Positions 4,240 through 29,779 of a stretch of 48,853 nucleotides of DNA are shown piece by piece (the stretch's first letter is position 1; every line of letters starts with the position of its first letter). This stretch comes from Gammaproteobacteria bacterium (GTDB taxonomy: Bacteria > Pseudomonadota > Gammaproteobacteria > SZUA-229), in NCBI GenBank assembly GCA_029287435.1, contig JARFRD010000118.1:1-48853 (forward strand), given 5' to 3'. Made by a program: the position numbers and the translations under genes. Under the pieces are notes generated by a model that ran no database searches, was not told the origin of the DNA, and saw nothing but the letters and a program-made list of their open reading frames with translations.

Positions 4240-5382
4240 ATGAACTTACAGCCATATCTGAAACTGATGTCGGAGCAGCATGCGTCCGATTTGTATTTTA
4301 CGACGGGCGCTCCGGTGAGCGTGCGTATTGAAGGCAAGATGCGGCCTGTTGGCAAAAGCATGTTGTCACCCGGTATGACGCGCAAGCTTGCTTATGACCT
4401 GCTGTCGCCGGCGCAGATCAAGGACTTCGAGAGGAATCTCGAATTCAACATGGGCATGTCCTATACCGATCTTGGTCGTTTCCGTGTAAACATGTATATG
4501 CAGCGCGGCGAAGTATCAATGGTGATTCGATACATCAAGGCAGATATTCCTTCGGTAGAAGAACTGGCGTTACCTGATGTCTACAAGGACATCATGAAGA
4601 AAAAGAAAGGCCTTGTTATGGTTGTTGGTGCTACCGGCACCGGTAAATCGACATCACTGGCCTCGATGCTGGATTATCGCAACGAGCTCGATACCGGTCA
4701 TATCCTGACCATCGAAGATCCGATTGAATTCATGTTTCACCACAAGAAGTGCATCATCGGTCAGCGCGAAGTAGGGCTGGATACACTGTCTTTTGATAAT
4801 GCATTGTGTGAGGCCATGCGCGAAGCACCGGATGTAATCATGATTGGCGAAGCGCGTGATCGTATGACCATCGAATCGGCGTTGCGTTATGCAGACACCG
4901 GTCATCTATGTCTGACAACATTGCATGCAACCAATGCTAACCAGACACTTGATCGCATACTTAACTTCTTCCCGAGTGATGCACATAACCAGATTCTGAT
5001 GGACCTGTCACTCAATCTGAATGCGGTTCTTGCGCAGCGCCTTGTAACATCAGCTGATGGCACACATCGCGTGGTTGCCTGTGAGGCGATGATTAACACG
5101 CCCTATATAAGCCAGCTAATTCGCGATGGCAATTTCCATGGCATCAAGGAGATCATGGAAAAAGGCTCTGATGTCGGCATGCAAACCTTTGACCAGTCAC
5201 TGTATATCCTTTACAAAGAAGGCAAAATTGATCTTAAAACAGCACTCGCCAATGCTGATTCAAGCAGTGATCTTGAATGGCGAATTAACTTTGGTGGTGG
5301 TGTTAAGAATCTTGAAGGCAAGGAAAAAGAGTCGGAAGCACTTCAGTTTCCCAGCGCCTCGACCGATCTGAACAAGTCCTGA
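4240..5382 (+). CDS. Second PilU-like (PilT/PilU family) ATPase
   Basis: GATGTGKSTSLASM, TIEDPIE, MREAPDVIMIGEARD, NQTLDRILNFFP; paralogous to the adjacent PilU. Confidence 0.9.
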   Translation: MNLQPYLKLMSEQHASDLYFTTGAPVSVRIEGKMRPVGKSMLSPGMTRKLAYDLLSPAQIKDFERNLEFNMGMSYTDLGRFRVNMYMQRGEVSMVIRYIKADIPSVEELALPDVYKDIMKKKKGLVMVVGATGTGKSTSLASMLDYRNELDTGHILTIEDPIEFMFHHKKCIIGQREVGLDTLSFDNALCEAMREAPDVIMIGEARDRMTIESALRYADTGHLCLTTLHATNANQTLDRILNFFPSDAHNQILMDLSLNLNAVLAQRLVTSADGTHRVVACEAMINTPYISQLIRDGNFHGIKEIMEKGSDVGMQTFDQSLYILYKEGKIDLKTALANADSSSDLEWRINFGGGVKNLEGKEKESEALQFPSASTDLNKS

Positions 5383-5460
5383 CAGGCTTATCCAGTCTGC
5401 TCTCGTGCTTTCTCGCAGTAGAAAGCTGTTGTTGTCGTAAGTATCAGTTATGATCATGTC

Positions 5461-6195
5461 ATGAAGCTGATACCTCATCATCAATTATTGCTGATACTGG
5501 GTTCCTTGTATTTAATATGGTGGCTGTTTCTGGCCATCAATCCACATGACAGGGCAGACTGGGCACTGGAAAATGTACTCGTGCTGCTTTTTGTTGTCTT
5601 GCTCGTTTCTACCTACAGACGTTTTCCACTATCACGAATTTCCTATACATTAATTTTTATATTCATGTGCCTGCACTCGGTCGGCGCATATTACACGTAT
5701 GCGCTTGTGCCATACGATGTGTGGTTTCAAATGTACCTGGGTTTCAGTCTTGATGAGCTAATGGGGTTCGAGCGTAATCATTTTGATCGGCTTGTGCATT
5801 TTTGCTATGGCCTGTTGCTGGCTTATCCTATTCGAGAATTCTTTATACGAGTGGTTGATGTAAAGGGTTTCTGGGCCTACTTCCTGCCGCTTGATCTAAC
5901 CATGTCAACATCAATGATGTTCGAACTGTTTGAGTGGGGTGCAGCTGAGCTGTTTGGTGGTGACCTCGGTGTTGCCTACCTGGGCACGCAAGGTGATGTA
6001 TGGGATGCACACAGGGATATGGCGCTCGCCAGTCTGGGTGCACTTGTTGCGATGTCTCTCACAGCATTGCTTAATTCCAGAATACAGAGGGACTTTGCCA
6101 GGGAATGGAACGAAAGCTTGCGTATAAAAGGTAAAGAGCCGCTAGGAGAGGAAGCTATTCTGAAAATGGTTAAAGGGCGAGATCGTGATAGCTAG
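5461..6195 (+). CDS. DUF2238/YjdF-family inner membrane protein
   Basis: DRADWALEN, GAYYTYALVP, RNHFDRLVHF, YLGTQGDVWDAHRDM motifs; several hydrophobic segments. Confidence 0.85.
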   Translation: MKLIPHHQLLLILGSLYLIWWLFLAINPHDRADWALENVLVLLFVVLLVSTYRRFPLSRISYTLIFIFMCLHSVGAYYTYALVPYDVWFQMYLGFSLDELMGFERNHFDRLVHFCYGLLLAYPIREFFIRVVDVKGFWAYFLPLDLTMSTSMMFELFEWGAAELFGGDLGVAYLGTQGDVWDAHRDMALASLGALVAMSLTALLNSRIQRDFAREWNESLRIKGKEPLGEEAILKMVKGRDRDS

Positions 6196-6221
6196 TCTAT
6201 TGTTTGTATTGAGCTTATGCC

Positions 6222-6253
6222 TGACGTTCGCTAACGGCCTATAGCGAATATTC
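6222..6253 (+). repeat. Cassette-boundary palindromic site R1
   Basis: TGAC-GTTCGCTA-ACGGCCTA-TAGCGAAT-ATTC; TTCGCTA/TAGCGAA arms around an 8-nt core, shortly after the DUF2238 stop. Confidence 0.7.
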
Positions 6254-6338
6254 GATAGATTGTTGATAATACAATTTTAAGCTGTTTCACTAGATACTGA
6301 GGCTGACTGAGTTATGCTGCAAGAAGTCAACGAGATTA

Positions 6339-7382
6339 ATGACGTCGCACTCTAGTTCACTTGCTAATTTGGGCTGGCAAGCTTTTTTTCAGCAGCAGCT
6401 CTCGCTGGATGAGTGGGATGGCGCTATTCCTGCAAGAGTTGTTGAGCAGTCTAAGTCTGAAATAACCGTAGCCACAGAGTCTGGTGTTTTCAATATTCCT
6501 TTATTAGCGACAATGCCTGAAATGGTTGTAGGTGACTGGCTATTGTTAGATAACCAGCAACGGATAATACGCCAGCTTGAACGTAAAACCTGTTTTTCCA
6601 GAAAAGCTGCAGGCAGTAAATTAAAGAGGCAGCTGATATCTGCCAATGTTGATACGGCTTTCATTGTCTCTTCAATGAATGATGACTTTAATCTGAACAG
6701 GATTGAGCGTTTTCTTTCTCTGGTGAATGAGTCAGGCGCAGAACCGGTCGTATTGTTAAGTAAAAGCGATCAATCAGAAACACCTCAAAGCTTTGTTGAA
6801 AAGGTTCAGGCTCTGGATCCGTTCCTGGTGGTTGAATCCATTAACTGTCTGGATGAAACAAGTGTCAGTAAACTATCTCCCTGGTTAAAACAAGGAACTA
6901 CTATAGCTGTGTTGGGCTCTTCGGGTGTGGGAAAAACTACGCTGATTAATACACTGCTCGGGGAACAAAGGCTTGGCACAGGAGATATAAGAGAAGATGA
7001 TGACAAGGGACGACATACTACAACGCGGCGTTCGCTAATTTCTTTAGGAGAGCGAGGGATTATTTTGGATAATCCCGGGATGCGGGAAATTCAAATAGCT
7101 GATTGCAAGGAAGGTATCGCAACTACATTTGCCGATATTGAAGCGTATGCAGAACAATGTAAGTTTAGTGACTGTAAGCATCAGACCGAACCTGGCTGCG
7201 CGGTTCAACAGGCCATTGTCTCCGGGGAGTTAGGCCAGAGACGTTTAGATAACTATCTCAAGTTACTGCGAGAGGAAGAATTTAATTCAGCCACTCTTGC
7301 TGAGCGCCGGGCCAGTGATAAAGCCCTGGGCAAGTACTACAAGCAAACACTATCAGAAGCTCACAAACTAAAAGGTAGATAA
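6339..7382 (+). CDS. rsgA: RsgA-family circularly permuted GTPase (long, accessory-type copy)
   Basis: G4 SKSD before G1 GSSGVGKT, GRHTTTRR, G3 DNPG, Zn finger CKFSDCKHQTEPGC. Confidence 0.9.
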   Translation: MTSHSSSLANLGWQAFFQQQLSLDEWDGAIPARVVEQSKSEITVATESGVFNIPLLATMPEMVVGDWLLLDNQQRIIRQLERKTCFSRKAAGSKLKRQLISANVDTAFIVSSMNDDFNLNRIERFLSLVNESGAEPVVLLSKSDQSETPQSFVEKVQALDPFLVVESINCLDETSVSKLSPWLKQGTTIAVLGSSGVGKTTLINTLLGEQRLGTGDIREDDDKGRHTTTRRSLISLGERGIILDNPGMREIQIADCKEGIATTFADIEAYAEQCKFSDCKHQTEPGCAVQQAIVSGELGQRRLDNYLKLLREEEFNSATLAERRASDKALGKYYKQTLSEAHKLKGR

Positions 7383-7385
7383 CAT

Positions 7386-7417
7386 GAAGGTCTGCTTTGG
7401 GTCTTAACCCGAGTGAG
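7386..7417 (+). repeat. Cassette-boundary palindromic site R2 (degenerate right arm)
   Basis: GAAG-GTCTGCTT-TGGGTCTT-AACCCGAG-TGAG, 3 nt after the rsgA stop. Confidence 0.55.
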
Positions 7418-7427
7418 AGAGAATATC

Positions 7428-8243
7428 ATGCAGAAAACCATTCTGGTTACAGGTTCAACCGACGGCATCGGATTGGAAACGGCAAAAATACTGGTGTCGA
7501 TGGGGCATCATGTTCTGTTACATGGGCGTAATCCGGCAAAGCTTGAGCAAGTGGAAAATGCACTTTCAGCGTTAGCGAATAACGGGCGCGTTGAAAGCTA
7601 CATGGCAGACCTGTCGCGCATGGCTGATGTAGAGACACTGGCGCAGGCGATAACTGAACGGCACAACCAGCTTGATGTACTGATCAATAATGCGGGAGTC
7701 TTTAAAACGCCCGATGCCATCACGCAAGACGGGCTGGATGTACGGTTCGCGGTCAATACACTTGCGCCCTGTCTGCTGACTAAACGACTTTTACCGCTGT
7801 TTGGGTCTTCTGCACGTATAATCAACCTTTCTTCCGCTGCCCAGTCTCCGGTAAATACGGAAGCGCTGATGGGCCGGGTCAGATTGTCTGACGACCTGGA
7901 GGCATACGCGCAGAGCAAACTGGCGATTACCATGTGGTCTCGTCATATGGCGCTTATGCTCAAAGAGAACGCTCCGGCCTTCATTGCAGTCAATCCTGGG
8001 TCGCTGCTCGGCACAAAAATGGTCAAAGAGGGCTTTGGTATGGTTGGCAAAGATATCGGCATCGGTGCAGATATACTCATCCGCGCTTCACTGTCTGATG
8101 AATTCGAAACGGCATCCGGGCAATATTTCGACAACGATTCGGGCAGTTTTGTGTCACCTCACCGTGATGCGCTTGATCCACAAAAAACTGAAGAAGTTGT
8201 CCGAGCTATCGAGACCGTCCTGGATGACATAACAAGTGTATAG
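7428..8243 (+). CDS. Short-chain dehydrogenase/reductase (SDR)
   Basis: TGSTDGIG, NNAG, catalytic YAQSK; ATG 7428 preferred over GTG 7413, which lies inside site R2. Confidence 0.9.
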   Translation: MQKTILVTGSTDGIGLETAKILVSMGHHVLLHGRNPAKLEQVENALSALANNGRVESYMADLSRMADVETLAQAITERHNQLDVLINNAGVFKTPDAITQDGLDVRFAVNTLAPCLLTKRLLPLFGSSARIINLSSAAQSPVNTEALMGRVRLSDDLEAYAQSKLAITMWSRHMALMLKENAPAFIAVNPGSLLGTKMVKEGFGMVGKDIGIGADILIRASLSDEFETASGQYFDNDSGSFVSPHRDALDPQKTEEVVRAIETVLDDITSV

Positions 8244-8245
8244 CT

Positions 8246-8277
8246 GAGTGTCTGTTATCGGCCAATAGCGGACGTCC
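8246..8277 (+). repeat. Cassette-boundary palindromic site R3
   Basis: GAGT-GTCTGTTA-TCGGCCAA-TAGCGGAC-GTCC, 2 nt after the SDR stop. Confidence 0.75.
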
Positions 8278-8340
8278 AACGTTTGAGTTAAGTGACCTTG
8301 TTATGTGATGATTCAAAACGTCCTAACGTGAGGGATACGA

Positions 8341-8547
8341 TCAGAGAGGCACAACCTTGTTTGCACACGGTCCCTTTTCACTTTGTCCTATTTCGTATTC
8401 TACTTTCTGGCCATCACTGAGCGTCGCATAACTGCCACCACTCTGGATTTCAGTATGATGAACGAACAGATCTTTTCCCCCATCGTCTGGAGTGATGAAA
8501 CCGAAACCTTTGTCTGGATTGAACCACTTTACTGTACCTGTACTCAT
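8341..8547 (-). CDS. Cold-shock domain protein (CspA family)
   Basis: 68 aa, GTVKWFN, RNP1 KGFGFI, RNP2 LFVHH; RBS GAGGA. Confidence 0.96.
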
Positions 8548-8690
8548 GTCGTATTTTTCCTCGTTATACTAATATTAATTAAACTACTGTGCTCTGACTT
8601 TATTACAGAATTATTTATCAACATGCATCATAACTGAAATGCGCTAATCATTCTTCGATACATAACATTAGAACTGTGGGGTATTCATAC

Positions 8691-8722
8691 GACTGACCGC
8701 TATCGGCCAGAAGCGGCCGTTC
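8691..8722 (+). repeat. Cassette-boundary palindromic site R4
   Basis: GACT-GACCGCTA-TCGGCCAG-AAGCGGCC-GTTC; core matches R3 at 7/8. Confidence 0.75.
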
Positions 8723-8724
8723 AG

Positions 8725-8795
8725 AAACCGTGGTCTGTCCCCGGTTATTCGTCCCCGGTTATTCCGTGGTCTGTCCCCGGTTATTCCGGTTATTC
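8725..8795. repeat. Nested tandem repeats of CCGTGGTCTGTCCCCGGTTATTC
   Basis: Four head-to-tail copies of 23, 14, 22 and 9 nt, all ending in CGGTTATTC. Confidence 0.9.
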
Positions 8796-8809
8796 GCGGG
8801 AAAATAACT

Positions 8810-8841
8810 GGATGATCACTATAAATCGGAAGCCACTGTAT
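8810..8841 (+). repeat. Possible degenerate boundary site R5
   Basis: GGAT-GATCACTA-TAAATCGG-AAGCCACT-GTAT; same spacing as R1-R4 but weak identity. Confidence 0.3.
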
Positions 8842-9034
8842 AGCAATAGAATGATTGCATTTCGATACTTCGGCGCAACCAGGCCGACGCATGAATTTGC
8901 TGGACAAAGCAGGTGTATCTACCAGATTTCTTGAGAATATGTCTGGCATCATGTAATTGGAGGATTTGTTATTGCAATAGAATCTTATACGCAATAAGCC
9001 TTCACGCTTATAGATATTTAAACAAAAATCCCTG

Positions 9035-9148
9035 TTATTTTCCTCTGTTATCCTGCGTTTCCTGATGAGAACGAGTTAAATAAATTACGATAAAAGATAA
9101 ACCAACTGCAACTGTCATAACCGAATATGTCAATGTATCTAAAATCAT
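9035..9148 (-). CDS. Putative 37-aa single-pass membrane small protein
   Basis: MILDTLTYSVMTVAVGLSFIVIYLTRSHQETQDNRGK; TAAGGT RBS 8 nt upstream; below the ORF-track cutoff. Confidence 0.55.
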   Translation of the reverse strand: MILDTLTYSVMTVAVGLSFIVIYLTRSHQETQDNRGK

Positions 9149-9240
9149 TTGTACATACCTTAATTTGATTTAAATAAAACTTAAAATGCTTTTTAATATT
9201 AACTACCTGTATGTAAAACGTATCAAAACACCCTCAATTG

Positions 9241-9259
9241 CAAAATGATAATTATCAAT
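9241..9259. promoter_or_regulatory. Fur-box-like site
   Basis: CAAAATGATAATTATCAAT, 13/19 to GATAATGATAATCATTATC; contains palindrome TGATAATTATCA. Confidence 0.4.
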
Positions 9260-9282
9260 TACGCAAGCTGACTTGATATTTC

Positions 9283-9296
9283 TTGATATCAGTCAA
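9283..9296. promoter_or_regulatory. FNR/ANR-box-like site
   Basis: TTGAT-ATCA-GTCAA, one mismatch to TTGAT-N4-ATCAA. Confidence 0.5.
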
Positions 9297-9356
9297 TATA
9301 CTGATGAGCACGCTCTAATAATCAAGCTGGATCTATCAGAGATTATAAGGTTGTTT

Positions 9357-9388
9357 GATTACCCGCTTTTGATCCAAAGCGGATATTC
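9357..9388 (-). repeat. Cassette-boundary palindromic site R6 (inverted orientation)
   Basis: Minus strand GAAT-ATCCGCTT-TGGATCAA-AAGCGGGT-AATC; CCGCTTT/AAAGCGG arms; 24 nt past the pyrC' stop. Confidence 0.65.
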
Positions 9389-9412
9389 GGGATAGGCGAT
9401 TGGATGGGTGCG

Positions 9413-10696: not shown

Positions 10697-11742
10697 TGTT
10701 CTTCTCCGCTGATTTCGGCCTCGGGCTCACGCCCAAGCACCATGGACATTATGGCCATGCGTACGGCGATACCGTATGTGACCTGGTTCAGGATGACTGA
10801 ACGTGGCCCGTCAGCGACACTGGATTCGATTTCTACGCCGCGATTAATTGGGCCCGGGTGCATGACGATGGCATCGTCTTTCGCAGCCTTGAGCTTATCT
10901 TCGGTGAGGCCGTACTCACTGTAGTATTCGTGTTCGCTGGGTAGTAATGCACCCTGCATGCGTTCCTTCTGCAGCCGCAGCATGATGATCACGTCAGCGT
11001 CTTTTACACCTTTTGCGAGATCGTGATAAACCTTGACCCCCATATCTTCTATGTCGTTCGGGACCAGGGTTCTGGGTGCGATAACGCGCACATCACCTGT
11101 GTTCAGCGTGTTGAGCGCATGTATCTGCGAGCGAGCGACGCGAGAATGCAGCAGGTCACCAACAATAGCGACTCGCAGGTTGCCGAAGTCACCCTTGAAG
11201 CGACGAATGGTAAACATATCCAGCATGGCCTGTGTCGGATGTGCATGCCAACCATCACCGGCATTGATTACGCTGATGTGTGGTGCGACATGGCTGGCAA
11301 TAAAGTGTGCAGCACCGGAATCGCTGTGACGCACGATGAACATGTCACATAGCATCGCCTGCAGATTTTGCAGTGTGTCCAGTAACGATTCTCCCTTGGT
11401 CGTTGCCGAGGTGCTGATATTGATGTTTAGAATATCGGCGGACAGACGCTTGGCAGCCAGCTCAAAGGTGGTGCGTGTTCGTGTACTGGCTTCGAAAAAC
11501 AGGTTAACGATTGTTTTACCGCGAAGGATAGGGACTTTCTTCACACGCTGTTCATTGACGTTGGCAAAACTTTCTGCCGTATCAAGAATGCTGGTCAGAA
11601 TTTCGCTACCCAGTCCTTCGACGGTCAGGAAATGTTTTAGCCGCCCATTTCTGTCAAGCTGGATGTTCCAGTTATCATTGCCGATGAGGCTGTCGGTTGG
11701 TTTGCTGGGCTTGTTAACCACGCGATTTCCCCTTGCCGGCAA
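10693..11742 (-). CDS. pyrB: Aspartate carbamoyltransferase catalytic subunit
   Basis: [37 protein letters not shown]; exact start uncertain. Confidence 0.96.
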
Positions 11743-29636: not shown

Positions 29637-29664
29637 AACTCATCTCCTAACGATAATTAAGAAA

Positions 29665-29737
29665 TGAGCGCCGTTGTTCAACTCTGAGCCTGACAGGCCT
29701 GAATGTGTGAATTCAGCCTGCTGCAGCGCCCCTCAGA
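29665..29737 (-). ncRNA. SAH riboswitch
   Basis: Minus strand UCUGAG-GGGCGCUGCAG-(P2 hairpin)-CAGGCUCAGA...CAACGGCGCUCA: P1 UCUGAG/CUCAGA, pseudoknot GGGCGCUG/CGGCGCUC; directly upstream of ahcY, with TATAAT at 29754-29759. Confidence 0.92.
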
Positions 29738-29779
29738 AAATAAGTAGGGCCATATTATAGCCCAGAATCAGGTTTCAGA

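Follow-up and report, generated by a model that had tools for sequence, protein, structure and literature searches.

In integron cassette arrays, a composite imperfect palindrome, the attC site, follows each of a series of unrelated, compact and co-oriented small genes; the structure of this site is conserved while its sequence varies. The single-gene pdif modules of Acinetobacter plasmids are bounded by sites for XerC/XerD. Repetitive extragenic palindromic (REP) units are grouped in enterobacteria as bacterial interspersed mosaic elements (BIMEs), in which two types alternate in orientation, and dRS3 arrays of Neisseria flank variable genes; to our knowledge, REP/BIME repeats do not act as recombinase sites. 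Here we report the analysis of a gammaproteobacterial contig of 48,853 bp (GenBank JARFRD010000118.1, contig C82 of source genome G000; this whole contig is referred to as the window), in which a sequence-only reading had proposed that unrelated genes between pilU and pyrC′ are delimited by a 32-bp recombinase-like site. We find that this palindrome belongs to a widespread family of sequence-conserved DNA sites, and we describe the grammar and distribution of the family together with homology breakpoints inside the sites. As judged from sequence, gene modules may be exchanged by recombination in the centre of the site, through an enzyme supplied in trans and encoded elsewhere, a reading to which we give an even chance.

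The source assembly comprises 2.62 Mb in 218 contigs and is 77% complete. We derived a 40-nucleotide (nt) weight matrix from genome-wide copies of the palindrome in one iteration. The assembly contains 48, 37 and 34 non-redundant matches scoring at least 14, 18 and 24 bits, respectively, as compared with 4, 0 and 0 in an equally large genome simulated by a first-order Markov model, and the motif first noticed by eye is borne out by the scan of the source genome. A strict pattern gave 2 matches on the window against a shuffle mean of 0.21, a count reached in 2 of 100 shuffles. The letters quoted for positions 6222–6253, 7386–7417, 8246–8277, 8691–8722 and 9357–9388 were verified. Among the six copies that had been proposed (R1–R6), R4 (43.8 bits), R3 (41.7 bits), R6 (31.1 bits, minus strand) and R1 (25.4 bits) are true copies, whereas R2 is a half-site and R5 (8810) bears no likeness to the motif, both scoring below 14 bits. 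The rest of the 48.9-kb window, outside these sites, holds no further copy of at least 14 bits, in agreement with the statement that its core part is free of the motif. Genome-wide, 32 of the 34 strong sites (at least 24 bits) lie outside open reading frames (ORFs) of at least 120 amino acids (aa), which make up 88% of the genome, and the other two overlap a frame, probably spurious, that lies on the strand opposite to a DsrC-like gene. The strong sites are also clustered, with another site within 3 kb in 26 of 34 cases and only 15 of the 218 contigs occupied.

The palindrome spans 32–36 bp, with arms GAAyGTCYGCTw and wAGCGGACrTTC around a centre of 8–10 bp, and its consensus over 356 sites is GAATGTCCGCTT-TCGGCCAA-AAGCGGACATTC. 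Each genome carries two classes of centre, A (TCGGCCAr) and B (ACGACCCA/TGGGTCGw), and the A-class centre is itself nearly palindromic around GGCC, so that the fixed, asymmetric 8-bp core of the sequence-only reading has to be given up. By contrast, its comparison with simple tyrosine-recombinase sites holds for the geometry: inverted arms of about 12 bp flank an 8-bp centre, as the 12–13-bp arms of loxP, FRT and rox-type sites do, and the two centre classes would act like heterospecific lox variants. The family differs from lox-type sites in the near-palindromic A-class centre and in having no Cre- or Flp-like gene beside the sites. The sites follow a simple grammar. In 51 of 76 doublets, a B site is followed by an inverted A site, and gene-sized intervals are bounded mainly by A and B in inverted orientation (55 of 143) or by two A sites in direct orientation (58 of 143). 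The linkers fall into a few length classes of 34, 45–47, 56–59, 69–73, 83–84, 102–104 and 161–164 nt.

Mirror positions of the two arms do not covary: over the 356 sites, mutual information does not exceed 0.06 bit and pairing is as frequent as the column frequencies multiplied together predict, and 34 sites of the source genome show 68.5% pairing compared with 68.1% in shuffles. Since covariation is lacking, a selected RNA or single-strand fold is unlikely, and a double-stranded site that is read half by half by a protein is favoured. We infer that the arms are read as double-stranded DNA by a dedicated protein, rather than by their fold. The arms are kept across hosts with GC contents of 35–67%. 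The degenerate y and r columns of the arms carry 0.43 and 0.57 bit, respectively, over the 356 sites, and genome G174 reads AAT/ATT there. The consensus contains no GTAG tag, and its flanks stay below 0.4 bit. Among 349 sites, we found no excess of 2–9-nt direct flank repeats at any outer boundary; the target-site duplications that mark miniature inverted-repeat transposable elements were thus not seen.

The family is patchy among relatives of the source organism and widespread beyond them. Nine of 41 relatives match the pattern with up to 3 mismatches, and most congeners have no match; at this threshold, the numbers of strand-hits are 13 in G000, 6 in G007, 4 in G022 and 57 in G038, which represents a different family within the class. 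Of 401 genomes in the class, 16 match when up to 2 mismatches are allowed, and a reversed-pattern control gave 1 hit. G174, a 100% complete genome in two contigs, has 48 distinct places with a site. An exact 24-mer recovered at least 120 metagenome stretches, and 80 of these loci (304 kb, with GC contents from 35% to 67%) contain 225 sites of at least 18 bits. A 564-kb plasmid of Pantoea agglomerans has 42 places matching GTCYGCT-N10-AGCRGAC, with the centre types TCTGGCACAA and ATGAGCGAAA, often 40 nt apart. In E. coli, 5 of 5426 genomes show one marginal 29-nt match each, and a 52-nt site found no match in a phage collection. A 30-nt match of 87–90% identity is present in about 334 plasmid records of Klebsiella, and one Klebsiella pneumoniae plasmid (OW967382.1, locus L299) carries a single site of 29.9 bits at 2496–2535, in an unannotated gap. 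Full-text literature searches with motif strings and concepts, which did not cover supplements as a possible home of repeat consensus lists, returned no description of the family.

In five comparisons between relatives (contigs C152/C196, loci L178/L246, loci L195/L240, and the GNAT and SDR (short-chain dehydrogenase) modules of Pantoea), homology stops inside a site. Locus L178 of genome G157 and metagenome contig L246 share flanks of 89–93% identity around three modules in the former and one in the latter, and homology ends within both bounding sites. Identity of 99.6% between L195 and L240, and of 92% between C152 and C196 of the source genome, begins at the centre of a site. On Pantoea plasmids, GNAT, SDR and tccZ-annotated genes were each found alone in other plasmids with different neighbours. 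Among the 39 matches listed for Pantoea, every right end and 26 left ends lie in a site or within 7 nt of one; the 13 other left ends comprise the query start and 12 from matches of lower identity that break off at the SDR gene or within it. Where the partner sites differ, the switch point is placed either between an arm and the centre or on the far edge of the centre. Gene-content differences that end at the sites, as had been anticipated for the pilU–pyrC′ interval, were seen at these other loci, with the ends inside the sites. A 790-nt module shared by L195 and L240 ends at the apparent end of a tRNA gene and not at a site (region of about 2490–2539 in L195 and about 4437–4490 in L240).

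The genes between the sites are compact and mutually unrelated. The arrays of G174 (loci L172, L174 and L175) consist of co-oriented small ORFs of 93–190 aa with a site doublet between each; the first palindrome of the doublet touches or overlaps the preceding stop codon, and about 20 nt separate the second from the start that follows. No two of 44 array ORFs (from G174, G157 and four genes of the window) match each other by BLASTP at 1e-3, and most array ORFs belong to no Pfam family; the idea that the motif marks joints between unrelated single genes thus extends from the window to these arrays. The arrays sit behind core operons, after rplY–pth–ychF and dnaG–rpoD. Among 615 ORFs beside sites, the recurrent families are TPR, ABC binding protein, RidA, MBL, patatin, kinase, cadherin-like, beta-lactamase-fold and S9 peptidase, and no recombinase is among them.

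The island in the window lies between pilT and pilU (T2SSE ATPases) on one side and pyrC′/pyrB on the other. In seven genomes of the same genus (G001, G003, G004, G005, G006, G009 and G010), the pilU–pyrC′ gap measures 355–586 bp and holds just one gene, for a 107-aa YccV/HspQ-like protein, with no motif copy even at a threshold of 5 bits. In the source genome, the gap consists of 4030 bp of unrelated genes, and the suspicion that these genes vary among relatives was correct. Two further congeners, G002 and G008, have pilU and pyrC′ on separate contigs and stand outside this comparison. The hspQ-like gene was not found anywhere in the source assembly, at its 77% completeness. Homologues of the SDR gene, of csp together with its leader and of the stretch 8826–9287 occur at separate congener loci; the 4-kb island is thus a mosaic of about five modules, which probably replaced the ancestral hspQ-like gene. 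No move of the SDR gene from an ancestral locus could be demonstrated; its neighbours in G006 map to contig C131 of the source genome in a different gene order. The gaps of G005, G006, G004 and G011 (loci L104, L107, L108 and L110) contain other short, GC-rich hairpin repeats (for example, GCGGCTAAAGCCGC) that resemble classical GTAG-type REPs by eye, and G001 has 10 matches to Y1 transposases.

Five units make up the island: genes for a DUF2238 protein, an RsgA-like GTPase, an SDR and Csp, and a stretch with a 37-aa ORF. The first gene (5461–6195, plus strand; PF09997, E = 4e-52) encodes a DUF2238 membrane protein and was not found at this locus in the seven congeners. At its left, no site lies between the pilU stop (5382) and the gene (5383–5460), and no matrix match of at least 14 bits occurs at 5383–6217. 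R1 (6222–6253) is a weak A-class site with the centre ACGGCCTA and of ambiguous orientation. It is followed by the gene for the RsgA-like GTPase (6339–7382, plus strand; PF03193, E = 9e-46). Read against B-type copies of G038, R2 (7386–7417, plus strand) consists of a left arm and a B-type centre (GTCTGCTTTGGGTC), with the right arm lost. The SDR gene (7413–8243, plus strand; PF00106, E = 4e-31), for which ATG 7429 is the likelier start, has homologues of 68–73% nucleotide identity at other loci in G006, G020 and G005. R3 (8246–8277, plus strand) is a strong A-class site with the centre TCGGCCAA. As had been noted, R2 and R3 closely follow stop codons, each lying 3 nt past the stop, of the GTPase and SDR genes, respectively. 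The csp gene (8341–8547, minus strand; PF00313, E = 2e-26) has a conserved leader that reaches to about 8651–8681, and the region 8327–8681 shows 78–87% nucleotide identity to congener csp loci. In a permissive Rfam scan, the leader gave a weak match to the cspA thermoregulator (23.5 bits, under the gathering score of 78), and no family reaches its gathering score in the island region. R4 (8691–8722, plus strand), with the centre TCGGCCAG, is the strongest site of the window. The intervals R1–R2, R2–R3 and R3–R4 each enclose one gene, as described before.

R4 is adjoined by a tandem repeat of 14–23-nt units (CCGTGGTCTGTCCCCGGTTATTC and variants; repeat family D1; 8728–8786, plus strand). A contig from run X4 skips 45 nt of it (8740 to 8786), and the copy number therefore differs between populations. 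The fifth module (8826–9287, minus strand) is kept at another locus in congener G006 (contig C94; 83% and 74% nucleotide identity). It contains the 37-aa ORF (9035–9148, minus strand), which is hydrophobic and of membrane type and has a 38-aa homologue in G006 at a different locus (L165, 1980–2096, minus strand). R6 (9357–9388, minus strand), a B-like site with the centre TGGATCAA in the minus-strand reading, lies 25 nt beyond the pyrC′ stop and forms the right edge of the island. Parts of the island recur in contigs of four public runs, each from a different study, and one of these contigs spans 4731–6611, from pilU to the start of the GTPase gene. The only Rfam match of the window at gathering score is an S-adenosylhomocysteine (SAH) riboswitch aptamer (29659–29740, minus strand; 62.2 bits against a gathering score of 37).

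Much of this anatomy recalls the REP/BIME repeats (with their RAYT proteins and REPINs) of enterobacteria and pseudomonads, which are likewise extragenic, imperfect 30–40-bp palindromes of clustered and patchy occurrence, with two subtypes that alternate in orientation and few fixed linker lengths. The present sites are extragenic palindromes of 32–36 bp, within the 20–40 bp of such repeats, form inverted dimers (32 of 34 sites extragenic; 51 of 76 doublets in one configuration) with discrete linkers, and occur in 34 to about 57 copies per genome, patchily among relatives. Because of this shared two-type layout, homologous recombination at dispersed repeats is a live rival: the sites could be REP/BIME-type repeats with no gene-capture role of their own, which spread, now or in the past, as small non-autonomous elements or serve termination, mRNA stability, or gyrase or IHF binding, and modules would end there as hot spots of RecA-dependent or illegitimate recombination. 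We regard this as a serious possibility that nonetheless falls well short of even. REP super-families without a dedicated transposase are on record, including the Neisseria dRS3 repeats, in the sections of Di Nocera et al. (2013, PMC3733652) that concern them. Like these dRS3 repeats and Neisseria NIMEs and like CGTC-REPs, our palindromes form a family with no dedicated transposase and show CGTC/GACG at their arm ends in GC-richer hosts. According to the same sections, however, a CGTC-REP has an unpaired tag, an 8–9-bp stem starting with AT, a 4–5-nt loop and a CCA tail, whereas here CGTC lies inside the paired arm, the centre measures 8–10 nt and there is no tail. The unpaired tag, GTAG or CGTC, is lacking; no Y1/RAYT transposase (PF01797) was found in seven motif-bearing genomes, one of them complete (G000, G038, G007, G174, G157, G162 and G349), in a search whose controls matched; and copies number in the tens rather than the hundreds. 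The absence of target-site duplications also speaks against this explanation, as does the constancy of the arms over hosts of 35–67% GC, which is unusual for species-specific REPs. Nor does this explanation account for closely packed arrays in which unrelated orphan genes each have a doublet to themselves.

The remaining alternatives are considerably less probable. That the sites bind a transcription factor or nucleoid protein or act as terminators, with no tie to gene movement, is unlikely: conserved sequence without covariation fits a dimeric DNA-binding protein, and many flanked genes of the source genome serve stress or metal functions (CDF, CopZ-like, GDT1, Ni-SOD, Usp, Csp and rhodanese), but sites occur equally often after stops and before starts and in both orientations, the genes next to them in other genomes are of every kind, homology breaks within the sites, and the 8–10-nt loop with no T-run is, by inspection, unlike that of intrinsic terminators. 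Slightly less probable still are unusual attC sites whose clusters would be CALINs (clusters of attC sites lacking integron integrases) served by an IntI on another contig. The source genome does encode an IntI at a contig end (C171:9333–10277; TIGR02249, 440 bits against a cut-off of 265), the arrays of G174 resemble cassette arrays, and the doublets are attC-like in that the outer arms are better conserved than the degenerate inner ones and a doublet can fold as a single long hairpin. However, G174 (100% complete) and G038 (97% complete) are rich in sites and, like G007 and G022, yielded no IntI; IntI occurs in 8 of 16 motif genomes compared with 148 of 401 overall, a tally that takes in four unpublished genomes (G063, G165, G319 and G331). 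The DNA adjoining the IntI of G157 has no motif hit and carries different palindromes, attC-like by eye, and 49 loci around IntI relatives (563 kb) likewise contain no hit. Single sites of 32–36 bp that conserve sequence rather than structure, with no covariation, are the opposite of attC; their AAC/GTT triplets are not kept, as the weak y and r columns indicate, and many small arrays are scattered behind core genes in place of one platform. The earlier rejection of integron attC sites is upheld by these observations. No contig-end overlap joins the IntI contig C171 to a motif-bearing contig, and a home-made finder for canonical attC sites gave no output, even on the G157 integron with its visible attC-like palindromes, and is therefore uninformative. 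The IntI of the source genome (465 aa; C171, locus L019, 9330–10727, minus strand) has an extra N-terminal SAM-like repeat and full-length relatives in Thiotrichaceae, Arenicellales and other gammaproteobacterial metagenome-assembled genomes; the first ORF beyond it (10916–11077, plus strand) matches no Pfam family and runs off the end of the contig. Least probable of all, and very much so, are dif-like sites used by the host XerC/XerD, as in pdif modules, which likewise are single-gene modules with short inverted-arm sites of alternating orientation, shuffled among plasmids without a recombinase of their own. The sole recombinases found in every motif-bearing genome tested are XerC and XerD, and modules here are flanked by inversely oriented sites. 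Nevertheless, the motif shares nothing with the dif arms and occurs on chromosomes as well as plasmids in many bacterial families, and G174, G157, G038 and G001 each have one canonical dif with 0–2 mismatches to an E. coli-type reference; the Xer proteins should therefore have their usual specificity. Three patterns gave no dif in the source genome (77% complete). In G174, a site or site pair is found no more than about 3.5 kb from each of the two Xer-type genes (C1:422919–427292 and C2:248477–251557), a post hoc observation not seen in the source genome.

Exchange of gene modules at the sites, our preferred reading, would proceed by conservative, site-specific recombination that crosses over within the centre or at its edge, and the gene for the acting enzyme would lie elsewhere in the cell and not beside the sites. 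We infer both the site specificity and the dedicated arm-reading protein. Several results weigh against this reading. No recombinase was found to accompany the sites. The complete genome G174 has XerC, XerD and three phage-type integrases, and neither IntI, Y1/RAYT nor a resolvase; resolvases were also not found in G000 and G157, which speaks against sites of a serine recombinase. A tyrosine-recombinase-like frame, itself a weak match, occurs in 1 of the 80 metagenome loci. The breakpoints are resolved to 10–20 nt, a precision that would equally suit homologous recombination inside a repeat some 36 bp long, and the alternating two-type layout is that of REP/BIME repeats. In the island, the left edge has no site and R2 has decayed. 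Finally, the contigs of the four public runs show no excision joint at any site in the parts that they cover, a weak objection given that contigs drop rare variants. The suggestion that genes are shuffled as single cassettes by a recombinase encoded elsewhere therefore stands in its first part, as variable regions are divided by the sites into single-gene modules, and lacks its enzyme; the company of a particular tyrosine recombinase or HUH transposase was not observed, with no recurrent recombinase beside the sites and no Y1 in seven genomes, and neither were cassette junctions in the parts that the read contigs cover. The Panto/pox recombinase was considered as a lead and gave none, pox being described as rox-like in the relevant part of PMC4957104.

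We tentatively suggest, as a possibility that we hold to be doubtful, that the family represents a third bacterial gene-cassette system beside integrons and Xer/dif modules, in which lox-like sites with two incompatible centre classes would allow a gene with one site of each class at its ends to be swapped between replicons by double recombination, a natural form of recombinase-mediated cassette exchange, by a trans-acting enzyme common to very different Proteobacteria, including the culturable Pantoea. Should the sites instead be REP-like, the family would be one without RAYT whose arms are conserved over hosts of 35–67% GC, and it would help to explain the placement of accessory genes and breaks in assemblies. 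If they are true recombination sites, they would define a widespread route of single-gene exchange with no integrase gene nearby, acting on the chromosomes and large plasmids of bacteria that range from those of marine sediment to those of soil and plants, which current mobile-element finders would miss. As Pantoea agglomerans is culturable and carries the family, the question of the enzyme is open to genetics.

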